Shown here in pieces: positions 12,887 through 18,591 of a stretch of DNA of 64,000 nt. The stretch's first letter is position 1. Every line of letters starts with the position of its first letter. Position numbers and translations under genes: made by a program. Source of the DNA: an uncultured Alteromonadaceae bacterium (GTDB lineage: Bacteria; Pseudomonadota; Gammaproteobacteria; Pseudomonadales; Halieaceae); contig CAYTJQ010000006.1 of assembly GCA_964438205.1 (NCBI GenBank), positions 19,594 through 83,593 on the forward strand. The letters are read 5' to 3'. The notes beneath the pieces are model-generated. The model worked only from the letters and a program-made list of their open reading frames with translations, was not told where the DNA came from and ran no database searches.

Positions 12887-13815
12887 TGGGAACCCTGGTA
12901 GTAGCCGAACACGACAACGCCACCCTCAACCCGGCCACGCTGAACGCGGTCGCTGCCGCGCAGGCCCTGGGCGCCGACATCGACATCCTGGTCGCCGGCA
13001 GCGGCTGCGGCGCCGTTGGCGAGGCCGCGGCCAAGGTGCCGGGCGTCGGCAAGGTACTGGTGGCAGACAACGCCGCCTACGACCACGCGCTGGCCGAGAA
13101 TACCAGCCTGCTCGTCGCGGAACTGGCGGCTGGCTATGACAACGTCGTCGCTGCCGCCACCACCAGCGGCAAGAACGTCATGCCGCGCGTGGCCGCACTC
13201 CTCGACGTCGCGCAGATCTCGGACATCATCTCGGTCGAGTCCGCCGACACCTTCAAGCGGCCGATCTATGCCGGCAACGTTATCGCCACCGTGCAGACGG
13301 CCGATGCCAAGAAGGTCATCACCGTGCGCGCAACGGCCTTTGACGCCGTGGCCGCCGAGGGCGGTTCCGCCACCCTCGAGGCCGTGGACGCCGTGCACGA
13401 CGCCGGGGTGTCCAGCTTCGTCGGCGAAGAGCTGGCCAAGTCCGACCGCCCGGAGCTCACCGCCGCGCCGGTGGTGATCTCCGGCGGCCGGGGCATGCAG
13501 AACGGCGACAACTTCAAGCTCCTCGACGGCATTGCCGACAAGCTCGGCGCGGCCATCGGCGCCTCCCGCGCGGCGGTGGACGCGGGTTTCGTGCCCAACG
13601 ACTACCAGGTGGGCCAGACCGGCAAGATCGTCGCCCCCGAGCTCTACATCGCCGTGGGCATCTCCGGTGCCATCCAGCACCTCGCCGGCATGAAGGACTC
13701 GAAGGTCATCGTCGCCATCAACAAGGACGAGGACGCCCCGATCTTCCAGGTCGCCGACTACGGCCTGGTGGCGGACCTCTTCGAGGCCCTGCCGGAACTG
13801 GAAGGCAAGCTCTGA
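12886..13815 (+). CDS. etfA: Electron transfer flavoprotein alpha subunit
   Basis: 309 aa with FAD-binding signature [42 protein letters not shown] overlap with etfB. Confidence 0.93.
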
Positions 13816-13849
13816 CGGAGACCCCGGCCTGACAGGCAACAGCCTCGAA

Positions 13850-13875
13850 AGCCGGCCACTGCGCCGGCTTTTTTC
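13850..13875 (+). terminator. Intrinsic terminator after etfA
   Basis: AGCCGGC-CACTGC-GCCGGCT hairpin followed by a T-run (TTTTTTCT). Confidence 0.7.
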
Positions 13876-13923
13876 TCATGGATGTCCAGCCATCGCGTGA
13901 CGGCAGGATCTCATGGAGTAGCA

Positions 13924-14361
13924 ATGGAGATAGCCTTTCGACACGGTGAGCTTTCTGCTGCCGCAAGAGACGCAGTTTCGCGGGGTTTCGCCAGGCACTC
14001 GGAAGAACTGAAAGCTCCTGTCTACTCGAAGCGACTTGTTAACTGGACGATCACAGAACGGCGGCATGCCGTGATAGCCGTTCTTACCGCTGATCTTCTC
14101 TGGGATTGGCTCTACATCGATGAGCTCTGGGTCAGTGAGGAACTGCGTGGCAAGGGTGTTGGACGGAAGCTGATGAAGCTGGCGGAGGAGTTCGCCGCTA
14201 CCGAGCAGCTCGAGGGAATCTGGCTCTGGACCCAAAGTTGGCAGGCTGAGGGTTTCTACAGGAAGCTCGGTTACGTCGAGTTCTCTCGATTCGAAGACTT
14301 CCCCCGAGGCCATAGCAGGATGGGTTATCGCAAAACCATAGTATCCAACTGCAAGAGTTGA
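13924..14361 (+). CDS. GNAT family N-acetyltransferase
   Basis: 145 aa from ATG 13924, with acetyl-CoA motif ELRGKGVGRKLMKLAEEFA. Confidence 0.75.
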   Translation: MEIAFRHGELSAAARDAVSRGFARHSEELKAPVYSKRLVNWTITERRHAVIAVLTADLLWDWLYIDELWVSEELRGKGVGRKLMKLAEEFAATEQLEGIWLWTQSWQAEGFYRKLGYVEFSRFEDFPRGHSRMGYRKTIVSNCKS

Positions 14362-14413
14362 ATCAGCCCAGCGATTGTAAGCCGGCGGTCAAGCCGCCGT
14401 CAGCAGACGCCCG

Positions 14414-14821
14414 CTAGCAACCTCGAGGCGGCGGCGCAGCCGATTCGGATTCCTCCGAGCGTCGAACTGTATGGAAAAAGTAGACGCTTGCGATAATCCC
14501 TCCCGTAGTAATCACGGCCATAGCTGGTAGCCAAATCGACAGGTCGCTCAACAATACCTTGCTCCAAGTACCTGATTTGTCAGCAAGTTCGGCAGCGAAA
14601 GCGCCCATGAACGATAGCCCTGCTAAGAGCGTGAACACGCAGCTGAATGCAGCGACCACGTAGATCGAGGTTGCCGTGATCGCCTGAAACGCCGTCAGAC
14701 GCCTCGCAACGAGGAATGCGACTGTGAGGTAGCCAAAAGTAAGGCTGACATAGATGGTGAACGCAGAGATGCAGTTCCCCATGTAAATGCCAATCTGTTC
14801 GTAGAGTTCTGCTTCGGTCAT
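14414..14821 (-). CDS. Hypothetical multi-pass membrane protein (3-4 TM)
   Basis: 135 aa with long hydrophobic segments (ISAFTIYVSLTFGYLTVAFLVA; SIYVVAAFSCVFTLLAGLSFMGAFAA; WLPAMAVITTGGIIASVYFF). No family recognised. Confidence 0.55.
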   Translation of the reverse strand: MTEAELYEQIGIYMGNCISAFTIYVSLTFGYLTVAFLVARRLTAFQAITATSIYVVAAFSCVFTLLAGLSFMGAFAAELADKSGTWSKVLLSDLSIWLPAMAVITTGGIIASVYFFHTVRRSEESESAAPPPRGC

Positions 14822-15020
14822 GACCGGTGCACCCCAAGAGCATTAGCGCTTTGAGTCTATCAATCCAGTTGACAAGTAAGGGAGCTATCGCCTCTTGCCC
14901 TATAGCCGACGTCCTACGCGGCCCGGCTAACTTCCGCTCACGAACCGAAGGCGTCGCTAGCTATGCTGTCCACCTGGCTCATTAGCCTAGGCGCAATTAG
15001 CGAACCGAATTGCATCCGAA

Positions 15021-15347
15021 CTACAGGCACTGAACCTGCAACCTCTTTCCCTCGCACCGCGCCTTGTTCCCGAAAGCCATGCCCGCATTGCTGCAAACGC
15101 TCTGAAGCTGCCTAGTCCCGAGACTTGTTACACCCTCTTGCAAGTCTGCGCGTATTCTATCGATCTTGACGGGGCATCCTTCCTTGTCTTGGCCACTGCT
15201 CATCAGCTCCGGGTCCGCAAGGTACATGGCCAAGGCATTTGGTGCTTCCAGCCATTTCCCATCGGTCGCGTTGTCGGAGCCTCCACATCCGCTCATCAAT
15301 GCTGCCAGAATAAGGCTATGTGCTGATCGAATCGTTCGGGAATTCAT
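15021..15347 (-). CDS. Hypothetical small lipoprotein, Cys-rich mature part
   Basis: MNSRTIRSAHSLILAALMSGC gives a signal peptide plus lipobox (LMSGC). There are four further Cys in the roughly 85-aa mature region. Start trimmed to ATG 15347. Confidence 0.55.
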   Translation of the reverse strand: MNSRTIRSAHSLILAALMSGCGGSDNATDGKWLEAPNALAMYLADPELMSSGQDKEGCPVKIDRIRADLQEGVTSLGTRQLQSVCSNAGMAFGNKARCEGKRLQVQCL

Positions 15348-15493
15348 GGATACCATTCCTGTCGCGCGTGAATCAGGACTAAAGCATACCCACGACAAAA
15401 TGCGGCGAGCAAGGCGCAACGACAGACTGACATTGGCCGTAGGCTGCCATCTGGGGCAGCCTAGGTCGACTTCCGCTTTCAACCCGCTGCCAT

Positions 15494-15814
15494 TCAGCTT
15501 TGGCTTAACCGCTTTCTTTCGCTGAGCTTCAGGGAAGCTACTAGTGCGTCGATACGCTTGTGCGTTCTACGATGCATCTCCTGTAAAGCCATGCTGCTTA
15601 CCAGAATGTACATGAATAAGAACATTGCGAGGCTCTTGGGTTCGGCTCCGACATCCGTATATTGGAGTAACCCAACGAAAAGCCCGATTGTCACTATCGT
15701 GCTGATGGCTGACAGTATGGGATTGTACGAGGGGCGCAGCGACTCGATTTTTTTCGTCACATCCTCCTCGCGCTTGATTTCTTCGTACTTCAATTGAGCT
15801 TCCGCTTCGTTCAT
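15494..15814 (-). CDS. Hypothetical 2-TM membrane protein with charged N- and C-terminal helices
   Basis: MNEAEAQLKYEEIKREEDV..., then two hydrophobic spans and a basic C-terminal tail. ATG 15814 is preceded by GGAGGAG. The longer track ORF begins at a TTG. Confidence 0.5.
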   Translation of the reverse strand: MNEAEAQLKYEEIKREEDVTKKIESLRPSYNPILSAISTIVTIGLFVGLLQYTDVGAEPKSLAMFLFMYILVSSMALQEMHRRTHKRIDALVASLKLSERKRLSQS

Positions 15815-16165
15815 CTCCTCCCCCCGACCATTCTTCTCTAGGTGACGTGGCGTATGCTGTTGATCCAAGGATTCGACTGCCTGGCCATAGTAAGAGGTTG
15901 CATGGACATTTATCTACCCGTGATGCGGAGCACGAGGTTGACAGTGCACGAGATTCCATCCCGGCAAGCTAATCAGTCAACAGCTGGCCGACAGCGGAAG
16001 TTCGCCAGGGTCGCTACGGACGTCTGCTATCGACCCTGGACTGCCGCCATGCGTTGGTGGCGCAACAGAGCAAAGATTCGGCCTGCAGGAACCCAGTCTC
16101 ACTGTGGCGGACTCAATAAAGTTGTGCAAATCTTTAGTCGTGAATCTTAAGTGAGCCGCTCAACG

Positions 16166-16378
16166 ATGTTCAGATCAATCTCTGCTGGTGCGTTAGCTCT
16201 CGCTCTCATGGCACCTTCGGCGCATGCGGAAATGTGCGACTACGCTTCGACCAAGATCGCTGGCGCAGCCGGTAAGGCTTTGCCGGGCGCTGGTGCCACA
16301 GCTGGCACAATCGCTGCAGCCGGTGCAGGCATGAAAGCTGCTGGTTCCATACGCTGGTGCACGCGGGCTCAGGCTTAA
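16166..16378 (+). CDS. Small secreted Gly/Ala-rich protein (or the 5' part of a frameshifted gene)
   Basis: Signal peptide MFRSISAGALALALMAPSAHA, then a GAAGKALPGAGATAGTIAAAGAGMKAAG repeat-like region. Confidence 0.45.
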   Translation: MFRSISAGALALALMAPSAHAEMCDYASTKIAGAAGKALPGAGATAGTIAAAGAGMKAAGSIRWCTRAQA

Positions 16379-16380
16379 CG

Positions 16381-16818
16381 ATGCTCGGCTCAACCGCGGC
16401 GGGCGCATCTGCTGCCGGGACGGTAGGAATAATGGCCGGAACGGCGAGCGGCGTTGGAGCAGTGGCTGCCGTTCTGATGGCGCCAGTGACGATCGTCGTT
16501 GGGGCGGCTACAGCTTTAGCGGTTGGCGGGCTTGAAGCTGCTTGCTACTTCCAAGTCGAACGGGTCAATGATCCCTATGTGGTGATGGACGTCCTTGAGA
16601 GCGTTGCTAGTGTTGACCCCGCCGTGACCATTACGCAGACCAGGAATGGCCCAGTGTTCAGTATCTGGGAAGATCCAGACCGACTCTACGAAGACGTAGA
16701 TTCGGCGCGGCACTATTTCGTGCGAGAGCTATATATCGCGGATGGCCTCCTCAAACACTCAGAGTGGGGTTTTGACACCGACCTAGGTGCAGTCGTACTC
16801 GGTGTGGTGGAAAGCTGA
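16381..16818 (+). CDS. Gly/Ala-rich (glycine-zipper-like) membrane protein with a C-terminal globular domain
   Basis: MLGSTAAGASAAGTVGIMAGTASGVGAVAAVLMAPVTIVVGAATALAVGGL, followed by a roughly 90-aa non-repetitive domain. The alternative start GTG 16357 overlaps the previous ORF. Confidence 0.5.
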   Translation: MLGSTAAGASAAGTVGIMAGTASGVGAVAAVLMAPVTIVVGAATALAVGGLEAACYFQVERVNDPYVVMDVLESVASVDPAVTITQTRNGPVFSIWEDPDRLYEDVDSARHYFVRELYIADGLLKHSEWGFDTDLGAVVLGVVES

Positions 16819-16871
16819 CACAGTAACCGGCGGCATCGAACGTCTCAGTCAAGTTCCAGATCTGCCATCAC

Positions 16872-16896
16872 CCGGCTCGGCGTCTGCACGAGCCGG
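16872..16896. terminator. Hairpin between convergent island genes
   Basis: CCGGCTCG-gcgtctgca-CGAGCCGG, a perfect 8-bp stem. There is no clear U-tract. Confidence 0.4.
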
Positions 16897-16903
16897 CCCT
16901 CCT

Positions 16904-17143
16904 CTAGCTGGGCTGCTTCGATGCCCAGATAGCGAGACGGTGCCTAATCGCTTTTTGAGACAGCTGGTCCGGCGGTAGCGGCTGGATGAGCTTGTCATGC
17001 ACGAGTAGGCGGTAGATGTACTCGAGCTTGTCCGGCGCCGAATCGGTCGCCTCGAACTCGACGACGCCGCGCTTCTCGCCGTAGGCCGTGCCGAGAGCCA
17101 TCGCCCTCTTGACCAATTCCTTTTCGTTCTTTAGTTCTTTCAT
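16904..17143 (-). CDS. Hypothetical small protein (about 79 aa)
   Basis: ATG at 17143 (MKELKNEKELVKRAMALG...). No family recognised; it could be a gene remnant. Confidence 0.35.
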   Translation of the reverse strand: MKELKNEKELVKRAMALGTAYGEKRGVVEFEATDSAPDKLEYIYRLLVHDKLIQPLPPDQLSQKAIRHRLAIWASKQPS

Positions 17144-17363
17144 GCGCTGCCACTCCCATGACTCAGCGGTCGCCGCCGGACGCAGCCCGAACCTATAGGC
17201 TGTAAGCAATCCTGACACAGCACAGACGGAGCTGCCTTCGACGGTACAGCAAGACCGCTAAACCATGCCTGTCCGATGCGCCCTGTGGGGCGTCCTGCTC
17301 TGCACCGGCGCCGCCATCACCCACGACCACGACAGGATGGAGCGTCCCGGCATCCCTCCCTGG

Positions 17364-18524
17364 CTAGTCCCGCCGCAGCCGGTCGGAGATGGCGATCGGG
17401 GTGGGGTAGTTGAGCACCACGATATAGGACGAGGCGAGGAGCGTGAGGATCGTGGTCGCCTGGATCAGCAGCGAGGCATCCTGGCTGATGAGCGCGAGGT
17501 CGAAGGCGATGTAGGCGATCAGCAGCGAGAATTCGCTGGCCTGGCCCAGGCGGAAGCCCAGGTCCCAGGCCAGGCTCCGGCTCTCGCTCAGGCCGCCGAG
17601 AAGATAGCGGTAGACCACGGGCTTGAGCGTCAGCACCAGCGCGGCCAGGAGCAGGGCGGGCAGCAGGATCCGGTCCAGCTGGCCGAGGTCGAAACGGGCG
17701 CCCACGCTGAAGAAGAACAGGATCAGGAAGAAATCGCGCAGGGGCCGCAGGCTGCCGGCGATGTACTGGGCGATGGGGCTGGTCGCGATCGTCACGCCGG
17801 CGATGAAGGCGCCGATCTCCTCGCTGAGACCGAGGACCTGGGCCATCTCGGCGACCCCCAGGCACCAGCCGATCGCCACCAGGAAGATGTATTCGTGGAA
17901 GCGGTCGAAGCGGGCGATGAGCGGCAGCAGTGCATAGCGCACGGCGAGCCAGGCGCTGGCGCCGAGCAGCGGCAGGCCGAGCAGGGACAGGGCGGCCCCG
18001 ACACCGCCGCCGTCGCCACCCATGAGCAGCATGAGCACGATGATGGCGAGCAGGTCCTGGAGCAGCAGCATGCCCACCATCAGCTCGCCGGTGTGCCGGT
18101 GGTGCAGCACCGTGGTCGGCAGGAGCTTGATGCCGATGATCGTCGAGGAGAACATCATCGCCGCCCCGACCACCAGCGCATCGAGCTTGCTCGGCAGGAA
18201 GGGCAGGGCCAGGGCGTAGCCGGCGAGCAGGAACAATGCCGAGCTCGCCACCATCACCACCGTCGCGCTGCGCAGCGTCGCGAAAAGCGCCCGGGGCTGC
18301 ATGTCGAGACCGAGCAGGAACAGCAGGAAGATGATGCCGATGTGGCCGATGTCCGAGAGCAGCTTCAGGTCCGGCACGAGGCTCAGCCCGTAGGGGCCGA
18401 TGCAGGCGCCGAGCGCAATGTAGGCGATGATCAGCGGCTGGCGCGTATACAGGGCGATCGAGGCGAAGACCGCGGCCCCGGAGAAGATCAGGAAAAACGA
18501 GAAGGTGACGGACGTGCCTTCCAC
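17364..18524 (-). CDS. Cation:proton antiporter, CPA2 (Kef-type membrane domain only)
   Basis: 386 aa with about 11-12 TM, Na+/H+ exchanger-family N-terminus (IALGACIGPYGLSLV...DIGHIGIIFLLFLLGLDM) and no KTN domain. Confidence 0.85.
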   Translation of the reverse strand: MEGTSVTFSFFLIFSGAAVFASIALYTRQPLIIAYIALGACIGPYGLSLVPDLKLLSDIGHIGIIFLLFLLGLDMQPRALFATLRSATVVMVASSALFLLAGYALALPFLPSKLDALVVGAAMMFSSTIIGIKLLPTTVLHHRHTGELMVGMLLLQDLLAIIVLMLLMGGDGGGVGAALSLLGLPLLGASAWLAVRYALLPLIARFDRFHEYIFLVAIGWCLGVAEMAQVLGLSEEIGAFIAGVTIATSPIAQYIAGSLRPLRDFFLILFFFSVGARFDLGQLDRILLPALLLAALVLTLKPVVYRYLLGGLSESRSLAWDLGFRLGQASEFSLLIAYIAFDLALISQDASLLIQATTILTLLASSYIVVLNYPTPIAISDRLRRD

Positions 18525-18591
18525 GGGGCCCCCGGCGCGACGTGCGTGGTGTAAAGCCGCAGTCTAGCCCGTCGCCGGGCCGCGGTGCACG

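Follow-up and report, generated by a model that had tools for sequence, protein, structure and literature searches.

A low-GC islet of accessory genes in the variable interval between etfA and a CPA2 antiporter gene of a Halieaceae chromosome

What brings a handful of small genes of foreign composition together between two core genes, and do they act as one system once they are there? We address this question for a low-GC (guanine-plus-cytosine) island of 3,488 bp, which lies between etfA and a gene for a CPA2 cation:proton antiporter in the metagenome-assembled genome of an uncultured member of the Halieaceae (assembly GCA_964438205.1, contig CAYTJQ010000006.1). The whole stretch of DNA analyzed comprises 64 kb of this contig and is here called the window; positions are counted from its first letter. 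The island is probably a flexible-genome islet of independent accessory genes, sitting in a gene-transfer hotspot without mobile-element genes on a Halieaceae (Halioglobus-like) chromosome, and its genes form no functional unit. The terminator ahead of the insertion, the insertion itself, and the genes within it are listed here.

13848 to 13875, plus strand: intrinsic terminator hairpin of etfA, GCCGGCC...GGCCGGC plus a T-run; conserved
13876 to 17363, no strand: whole insertion, extra DNA relative to 80 species-representative relatives; GC content 0.565
13924 to 14361, plus strand: GNAT N-acetyltransferase gene; 145 amino acids (aa) in the recorded gene call, or 159 aa if translation starts at 13882
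14414 to 14821, minus strand: gene for a membrane protein with about four transmembrane (TM) segments by hydropathy (4-TM protein); 135 aa; unnamed family, alignment A2
15021 to 15347, minus strand: gene for a Cys-rich predicted lipoprotein; 108 aa; alignment A3
15494 to 15811, minus strand: gene for a 2-TM protein with charged termini; 106 aa; unnamed family, alignment A4
16166 to 16818, plus strand: pseudogene of a family of 207 to 218 aa, split into 16166-16378 and 16357-16818
16904 to 17143, minus strand: gene for a DUF5062 protein; 79 aa

A variable interval between convergent core genes

We compared the junction across 80 loci of relatives of the antiporter protein, one genome per species, with the best antiporter matches coming from the Halieaceae (Halioglobus, Parahaliea, Haliea, and Congregibacter). 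In 52 of these loci, etfB-etfA and the antiporter gene converge, and the gap between etfA and the antiporter gene measures at most 130 bp in 24 loci, 131 to 400 bp in 9, and 0.5 to 5.1 kb in 19. At the ten short-gap junctions inspected, the gap holds nothing but the etfA terminator, and in the closest relative (antiporter 92% identical) it is 27 bp long. None of the island genes, GNAT and DUF5062 included, is present in any of the 80 related loci, and relatives are without everything between 13876 and the antiporter stop codon at 17364. The initial annotation of this DNA had placed a low-GC island at 13876 to 17363 and proposed this comparison as a check of strain specificity; the interval it delimited is exactly the DNA that is extra here, and the island is specific in the sense proposed. 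The 19 loci with wide gaps carry other, unrelated inserts at the same junction, and since these differ in content, the etfA-antiporter interval is a variable spot with content turnover between lineages.

By reading of open reading frames (ORFs), the gaps of Zhongshania and Spongiibacteraceae contain YceI-like genes, and those of two Halieaceae loci (L029 and L036) contain a CDP-alcohol phosphatidyltransferase-like gene. A multi-gene insert of 5.1 kb occupies the junction in L076. The loci with other inserts are L003, L017, L018, L029, L036, L037, L040-L043, L045, L050, L053, L055, L058, L068, L069, and L076.

The left edge of the island falls directly after the etfA hairpin, which ends at 13875, as the initial annotation had it. 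This hairpin is also found 3' of etfA in L005, L016, L006, L014, L019, L021, L009, and L015, and is the last ancestral sequence ahead of the insertion. Across about 13.9 to 17.05 kb, the GC content falls from 0.65-0.75 to 0.50-0.60 (300-bp sliding window). Averaged over the island it is 0.565 versus a mean of 0.682 for the 64 kb, which makes the island the lowest of all overlapping 3.5-kb intervals (standard deviation, 0.034), and all 1-kb intervals with a GC content below 0.60 begin at 13,751 to 16,001. At third codon positions (GC3), the island genes range from 0.61 to 0.79, whereas the core genes on either side reach 0.89 to 0.95 (antiporter gene, 0.946; etfB and etfA, 0.89 to 0.91). Composition and codon usage therefore differ from those of the host genome, as expected of a horizontally acquired islet; the drop in GC had been estimated by hand at the outset.

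No mobility gene accompanies this foreign composition in the regions scanned, again in agreement with the initial annotation. A search at 8 to 24 kb of the window found no tRNA, no Rfam RNA was detected in the island, and nine flanking ORFs (5.8 to 27 kb) gave no match to an integrase or transposase family. Inspection of the block ends yielded no convincing direct or inverted terminal repeats, and plasmid DNA records gave no match to the island. The marks of a classical genomic island (an integrase or transposase, a tRNA target, flanking direct repeats) were thus not found. The island does not have the composition of its genome, its genes are not core genes, and its ORFs do not all belong to well-characterized families, so it stands as a feature; the function that had been guessed for it, considered below, does not.

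Layers and segments within the islet

Comparison with metagenome contigs divides the islet further, into a block and recurring segments within it.

14338 to 17362, no strand: five-gene block of about 3.0 kb; left breakpoint approximate (14322 to 14340)
14957 to 15439, minus strand: lipoprotein segment (gene plus flanks); 92.5% identical to L084 2167-2647
15507 to 15991, minus strand: 2-TM gene segment; an 890-bp X6 contig matches this stretch only, at about 88% identity
16825 to 17347, minus strand: DUF5062 segment (the gene together with about 200 nt of upstream sequence); identity of 91.6% to both L085 and L086

In metagenome contigs from three related populations, X6, X11, and X12, a GNAT gene about 85% identical to that of the island lies directly beside the antiporter gene, the two being separated by about 70 letters up to the antiporter stop codon, and the sequence corresponding to 14322-17362 is skipped. 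In contigs from X6 and X11, the junction connects 14321 with 17362/17363; in one X6 contig it connects 14260 with 17355. These GNAT-only contigs carry a terminator-like hairpin, GCCCGCAAGCGGGC, just before the antiporter gene. Past 14321 the relative encodes IGLRKVT versus MGYRKTIV here; because protein similarity persists beyond 14321, the true left breakpoint lies some codons further on, at about 14335-14340. Given the GNAT-only state in related populations, the other five genes make up a separate block of about 3.0 kb. The GNAT gene is the older layer of the islet, and the block appears either to have been gained later in this lineage or to have been lost in others.

In run X5, from the same study as the source, both flanks and 17097-17304 are covered at about 2.8x, and no contig falls in 13368-17056. 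A co-occurring strain in X5 may thus lack most of the island and keep the DUF5062 end, at a coverage that is low.

The block itself is heterogeneous. Three single-gene segments of 483 to 523 bp recur at 88 to 92% identity in unrelated contexts. The lipoprotein segment lies in L084 between an MFS transporter gene and bacA, where it again forms a low-GC islet (0.54 versus 0.65-0.68), and the DUF5062 segment has different neighbors in L085 and L086. The initial annotation had proposed a gene-neighborhood search for co-occurrence; we find no second island gene beside any island-gene homologue in L082-L100 (judged from gene and Pfam tables only for L096-L100) or in the 80 related loci. Taken together, the alignments describe the block of about 3.0 kb as a mosaic in which every single-gene piece has flanks of its own.

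One element recurs at or near the segment borders: AGCGGAAGTTnGCCnGGG and, after it, a short hairpin, located 100 to 170 nt upstream of three island genes.

14900 to 14947, minus strand: motif copy A, AGCGGAAGTT with a short hairpin; adjacent to the lipoprotein segment but outside it, and about 100 nt upstream of the 4-TM gene
15469 to 15489, minus strand: partial motif copy C, GCGGAAGTC; upstream of the lipoprotein gene
15993 to 16040, plus strand: motif copy B, AGCGGAAGTTCGCCAGGG plus a hairpin with a 9-bp stem; begins at the end of the 2-TM segment, upstream of the broken gene

A further copy lies at L085 1184-1234, and the L084 copy of the lipoprotein segment is without the motif. The 13-base core, GCGGAAGTTNGCC, was not found in 1.4 Mb of loci from Kef relatives, mostly Halieaceae, and when 241 million metagenome records were scanned for the fuller motif, only three matches came up, all chance-like and inside coding sequence. 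The element is thus uncommon as a border sequence. A reading of AGCGGAAGTT as an extracytoplasmic function (ECF)/general-stress promoter was considered and is not supported, the spacing to CGTC being about 19 nt and so exceeding the 16-17 that is usual; the broken gene's homologues in Rhodobacterales also have no GGAAC-N16-17-CGTT upstream of them, though one of these lies near phyR-nepR-ecfG.

Proteins encoded in the islet

The six island genes follow the strand order + - - - + -. That they are arranged divergently around a spacer had been recognized at the outset; by the start codons of the gene calls on record, this spacer spans 15812-16165 and measures 354 bp rather than 282 bp. Beside the GNAT gene, the initial annotation counted six small orphan ORFs, all of them taken to be envelope-targeted. 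We count five genes, since ORFs 16151-16378 and 16357-16818 represent one gene split by a 1-nt deletion, and the label of orphan has to be dropped for the 79-aa ORF, which is DUF5062, and for three other ORFs, each of which belongs to an unnamed family with homologues. Envelope targeting is upheld for the 4-TM protein, the lipoprotein, the 2-TM protein, and the signal-peptide/TM protein of the broken gene. The DUF5062 protein has no hydrophobic segment by hydropathy and is therefore soluble, not envelope-targeted.

Two genes of the islet belong to named families. The GNAT protein matches Pfam PF00583 (E 2e-14, 54.1 bits versus a cut-off of 20.7), with 1y9w as its nearest solved structure (E 8e-12); it also matches PHROGs acetyltransferase families and reaches no NCBIfam equivalog cut-off. 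The DUF5062 protein matches Pfam PF16691 (E 7e-33, 113 bits versus a cut-off of 27) at profile positions 2-75 of 83, and PDB 2m4e, an uncharacterized solved structure, at E 6e-8. It resembles its family over its full length, a match that names the protein and does not explain it. Compared with L085 and L086, the coding part shows 6-7 synonymous and 0 non-synonymous differences, and this synonymous-only pattern places the gene under purifying selection.

The remaining four belong to unnamed families that we flag here: the 4-TM proteins, the five-Cys lipoproteins, the 2-TM proteins, and the secreted Gly/Ala-rich proteins; three of these families are represented by few named isolate genomes or by none. 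An exhaustive HMMER search gave more than 130 representatives of the 4-TM family, 120-125 aa in length, whose conserved residues extend over the entire protein. Named members are few; one comes from Thalassospira. The 4-TM protein has no match in Pfam, NCBIfam, PADLOC, or PHROGs, and a phage search was likewise empty. In L087-L090, a 4-TM homologue adjoins an IS21 element, a nitronate monooxygenase gene, and dsbA.

The 108-aa protein carries a signal peptide and a lipobox, LMSGC, at residues 17-21 and is thus predicted to be a bacterial lipoprotein. The lipobox Cys is invariant in 9/9 family members and is preceded by Gly (Ala in one member), and five Cys are invariant in all, namely that of the lipobox and four more. 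The motifs GKWLEAP and C-terminal RCExGRLQVxC are both near-consensus in the family. Against L084, dN/dS is about 0.38. The AF2 model has a pLDDT above 90 for residues 30-108, and Foldseek gave it no match in PDB (E below 0.8) or BFVD.

For the 2-TM family, about 8 representatives share the motifs ESLRPSxNP and RRTHKRIDAL, and one homologue, WP_008294262, is encoded by Congregibacter litoralis KT71. WP_008294262 sits in a 10-kb run of Pfam-less genes, beside an HEPN_AbiU2 gene (L099, CM002299.1 3573800-3584117), and a PADLOC scan of its neighboring genes in Congregibacter found no match.

When ORFs 16151-16378 and 16357-16818 are joined as one query, proteins of 207-218 aa match 90-100% of its length. 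These are laid out as a signal peptide, CDYxPS, an approximately 80-aa conserved Gly/Ala-rich hydrophobic stretch, a long TM helix, ACYF, and a C-terminal globular domain of about 80 aa. The frame is lost at one position.

16344 to 16345, plus strand: site of the 1-nt deletion; an X8 contig has an extra C after 16344

At the point of the frameshift, homologues have AAGFYTLVH, and in the X8 contig (90% identical) the extra C restores GCT GGC TTC CAT (A-G-F-H). Depth at the deletion site is 12.6 in the source run, with no variant. Together these observations show that the two plus-strand ORFs are one gene, which is therefore a pseudogene in this lineage.

Intact homologues occur mostly in the Rhodobacterales (Salibaculum, Leisingera, Celeribacter, Amaricoccus, Primorskyibacter, Octadecabacter, and Paracoccus), where they are stand-alone genes in four different core contexts. 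The closest homologue shares a contig with a VRR_NUC nuclease gene. No Pfam family recurs across 41 members of the family. The C-terminal domain is modeled by AF2 with a pLDDT above 90; neither the full-length model nor that of the C-terminal domain has a Foldseek match in PDB (E below 0.8), and a profile search of PDB sequences was also without a match. Two of the flagged families, this one and the lipoproteins, thus have confidently predicted domains without structural relatives, and two have members in cultured strains (Congregibacter litoralis KT71; Leisingera and other Rhodobacterales). An identity as a TrbC/VirB2 pilin or glycine-zipper protein was rejected for the broken gene, TrbC reaching 14.1 bits versus a cut-off of 27.9 in the N-terminal half only. 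Among plasmid records, the broken gene has only a weak partial match, on a Roseivivax replicon.

A subfamily of about 129-140 aa (P0103-P0120; alignment A1) keeps the signal peptide, CDY, and the Gly/Ala-rich region, and the C-terminal globular domain is missing from it. Some intact homologues lie near stress genes, namely phyR-nepR-ecfG in Leisingera thetidis (L083), csbD in Primorskyibacter (L097), and clpB in Oceaniglobus (L098). The GGAAC-N16-17-CGTT promoter motif was not found upstream of the Rhodobacterales homologues, and the link between the family and the general stress response is no more than hinted at.

Origin of the islet and competing explanations

The site is the gap between the 3' ends of the convergent core genes etfA and the CPA2 cation:proton antiporter gene. 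An insertion between convergent 3' ends and terminators disrupts no operon and does no harm. We propose at least two steps, in which the GNAT acetyltransferase gene was acquired first and the mosaic block of about 3.0 kb was added afterwards. Entry may have been by illegitimate recombination, followed by spread through double homologous recombination in the flanking core genes with no element recombinase involved, and each intact protein would act by itself, on or in the envelope. The parts of a functional cassette should move jointly; those found here move separately, so a hotspot without mobile-element genes is the best-supported origin.

Hotspots of this kind have been described across 80 species, 27% being without an integrase or transposase (Oliveira, Touchon and Rocha 2017, PMC5635113), and their flanking core genes show an excess of homologous recombination (PMC5635113). 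The likeness to the present locus lies in accessory genes that occupy one interval between core genes and turn over there with no integrase, transposase, or tRNA, and in the spread proposed for them by double homologous recombination in flanking core genes. The locus differs in being a single one, from one metagenome-assembled genome, with only 3.5 kb and six genes, and in that the islet sits precisely between two convergent terminators. It would offer a clean, small example of how marine flexible genomes grow, in which a "safe" convergent gap takes up unrelated single genes in layers, one of them decaying. Small envelope proteins clustered in a foreign islet do not imply a system here.

Several points weigh against a hotspot of independent genes. 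A purely passive model leaves unaccounted for the motif of about 45 nt, which marks two or three of the segment borders and has one copy in L085. Homologue contexts are mostly short metagenome contigs, so that loose association could be missed. Four of the five non-GNAT genes are envelope-directed, which might exceed the uniformity to be expected of accessory genes drawn at random. Finally, the route of entry is one that we infer rather than observe, from one genome of this species.

The islet might instead be the decayed remnant of a larger mobile element (an integrative element, a prophage, or an insertion sequence composite) whose recombinase and ends were deleted and whose cargo was left behind. 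Such a history would be consistent with the foreign composition throughout and with one gene already being a pseudogene, as well as with the IS21 element beside the 4-TM homologue in L087-L090, the VRR_NUC nuclease gene on the contig of the closest broken-gene homologue, and the Congregibacter litoralis 2-TM homologue among unannotated genes near an HEPN_AbiU2 gene. However, no trace of a mobility gene, a tRNA, or terminal repeats at the block ends was found in the scans described above, similarity to plasmid or phage records is lacking, and the segments recur singly elsewhere, not jointly as one cargo. We consider a remnant of this sort unlikely.

The initial annotation had suggested that the small ORFs belong to one compact toxin/immunity, phage-exclusion, or envelope-stress module. 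In such a coupled envelope module, a membrane toxin would be paired with an immunity lipoprotein, or the proteins would form a phage-exclusion or envelope-stress system. Four small envelope-directed proteins do stand close together, two of the genes diverge around the 354-bp spacer, and two or three share the upstream motif. As in membrane toxin/immunity or abortive-infection pairs, small hydrophobic proteins lie beside a lipoprotein in a foreign islet; unlike in those pairs, the components have no conserved pairing and occur singly elsewhere. No pair of the families is adjacent in the other contexts examined, PADLOC gave no match for seven ORFs, and PHROGs and NCBIfam gave none for the five ORFs without a Pfam family, so that neither co-occurring neighbor components nor a known defense model was recovered. 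In addition, related populations are without the whole block, single segments stand alone at other loci, one gene of the divergent pair is a pseudogene here while the rest persists, and its intact Rhodobacterales homologue stands alone in varied core contexts. The suggestion of a module does not survive these comparisons, and we hold it to be distinctly improbable.

The motif copies raise the question of whether the segments move as units. One proposal holds that a cassette-type, non-integron form of gene shuffling has the single-gene segments of about 0.5 kb as its units, with the AGCGGAAGTT-hairpin as a border or recombination site, and, separately, that the broken-gene family is a new kind of envelope protein; we would treat this as a long shot.

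Closely related, and to our judgment very improbable, is that these segments are cassettes of a site-specific system, integron-like or new, that recognizes the AGCGGAAGTT-hairpin at their borders. GNAT genes and small genes of no assigned function are typical integron cargo. The recurrence of three one-gene segments of 483-523 bp at other loci would be in line with such a system, as would the position of motif copies at or near the borders 14957, 15439-15507, and 15991, the copy in L085, and the lack of the core GCGGAAGTTNGCC in the 1.4 Mb of other loci. The islet also resembles a CALIN (an integron cassette array without an integrase) in its short one-gene units, its small and mostly unknown secreted or membrane proteins together with a GNAT, the lack of an integrase nearby, and the recurrence of units in other contexts. 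In contrast to a CALIN, it has no attC sites and no long imperfect hairpins, and its genes lie on both strands. We searched 13800-17420 on either strand for an attC-type RYYYAAC...GTTRRRY pair 47-157 nt apart and found none, and the intergenic folds comprise short hairpins only, none of them long and attC-like; the integron reading was rejected on these grounds. An integron array would have an attC, with its imperfect hairpin of 55-140 nt, after each cassette and mostly one orientation, and neither pattern was observed. No integrase lies within 10 kb, the metagenome scan gave only chance-like motif matches, and the lipoprotein segment in L084 is present without the motif.

That the island is an artifact of assembly or binning, and that no real chromosome has it between etfA and the antiporter gene, is scarcely credible: the source is a metagenome-assembled genome and its assembly graph branches at 13735-13764 and 17034-17063, but word depth in the source run, taken from independent Logan unitigs, is even (12.5 in the left flank, 12.6 in the island, and 11.7 in the right flank), a single Logan unitig spans 13735 (inside etfA) to 17063, a unitig at 17002-17408 from a second sample of the same study crosses the right junction, and related populations carry the GNAT gene at the same place. 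With equal depth and junction-spanning unitigs, we take the island to be in place.

Housekeeping functions predominate among the genes flanking the island, which include etfBA, metH, and nfuA and those for an ETF-ubiquinone oxidoreductase, a glycosyltransferase, a sulfotransferase, the CPA2 antiporter, sulfite reductase, and DAHP synthase. An ORF of 429 aa at 17265-18554 on the plus strand, antisense to the antiporter gene, is spurious, a high-GC genome yielding such long ORFs. The upstream part of the DUF5062 segment overlaps with the first 28 codons of this ORF, which are not conserved at the protein level in L085. Upstream of the DUF5062 gene, at 17185-17302, the source run contains two unitig variants (depths 3.9 and 6.1) with 4-5 differing positions, which represent strain microdiversity.

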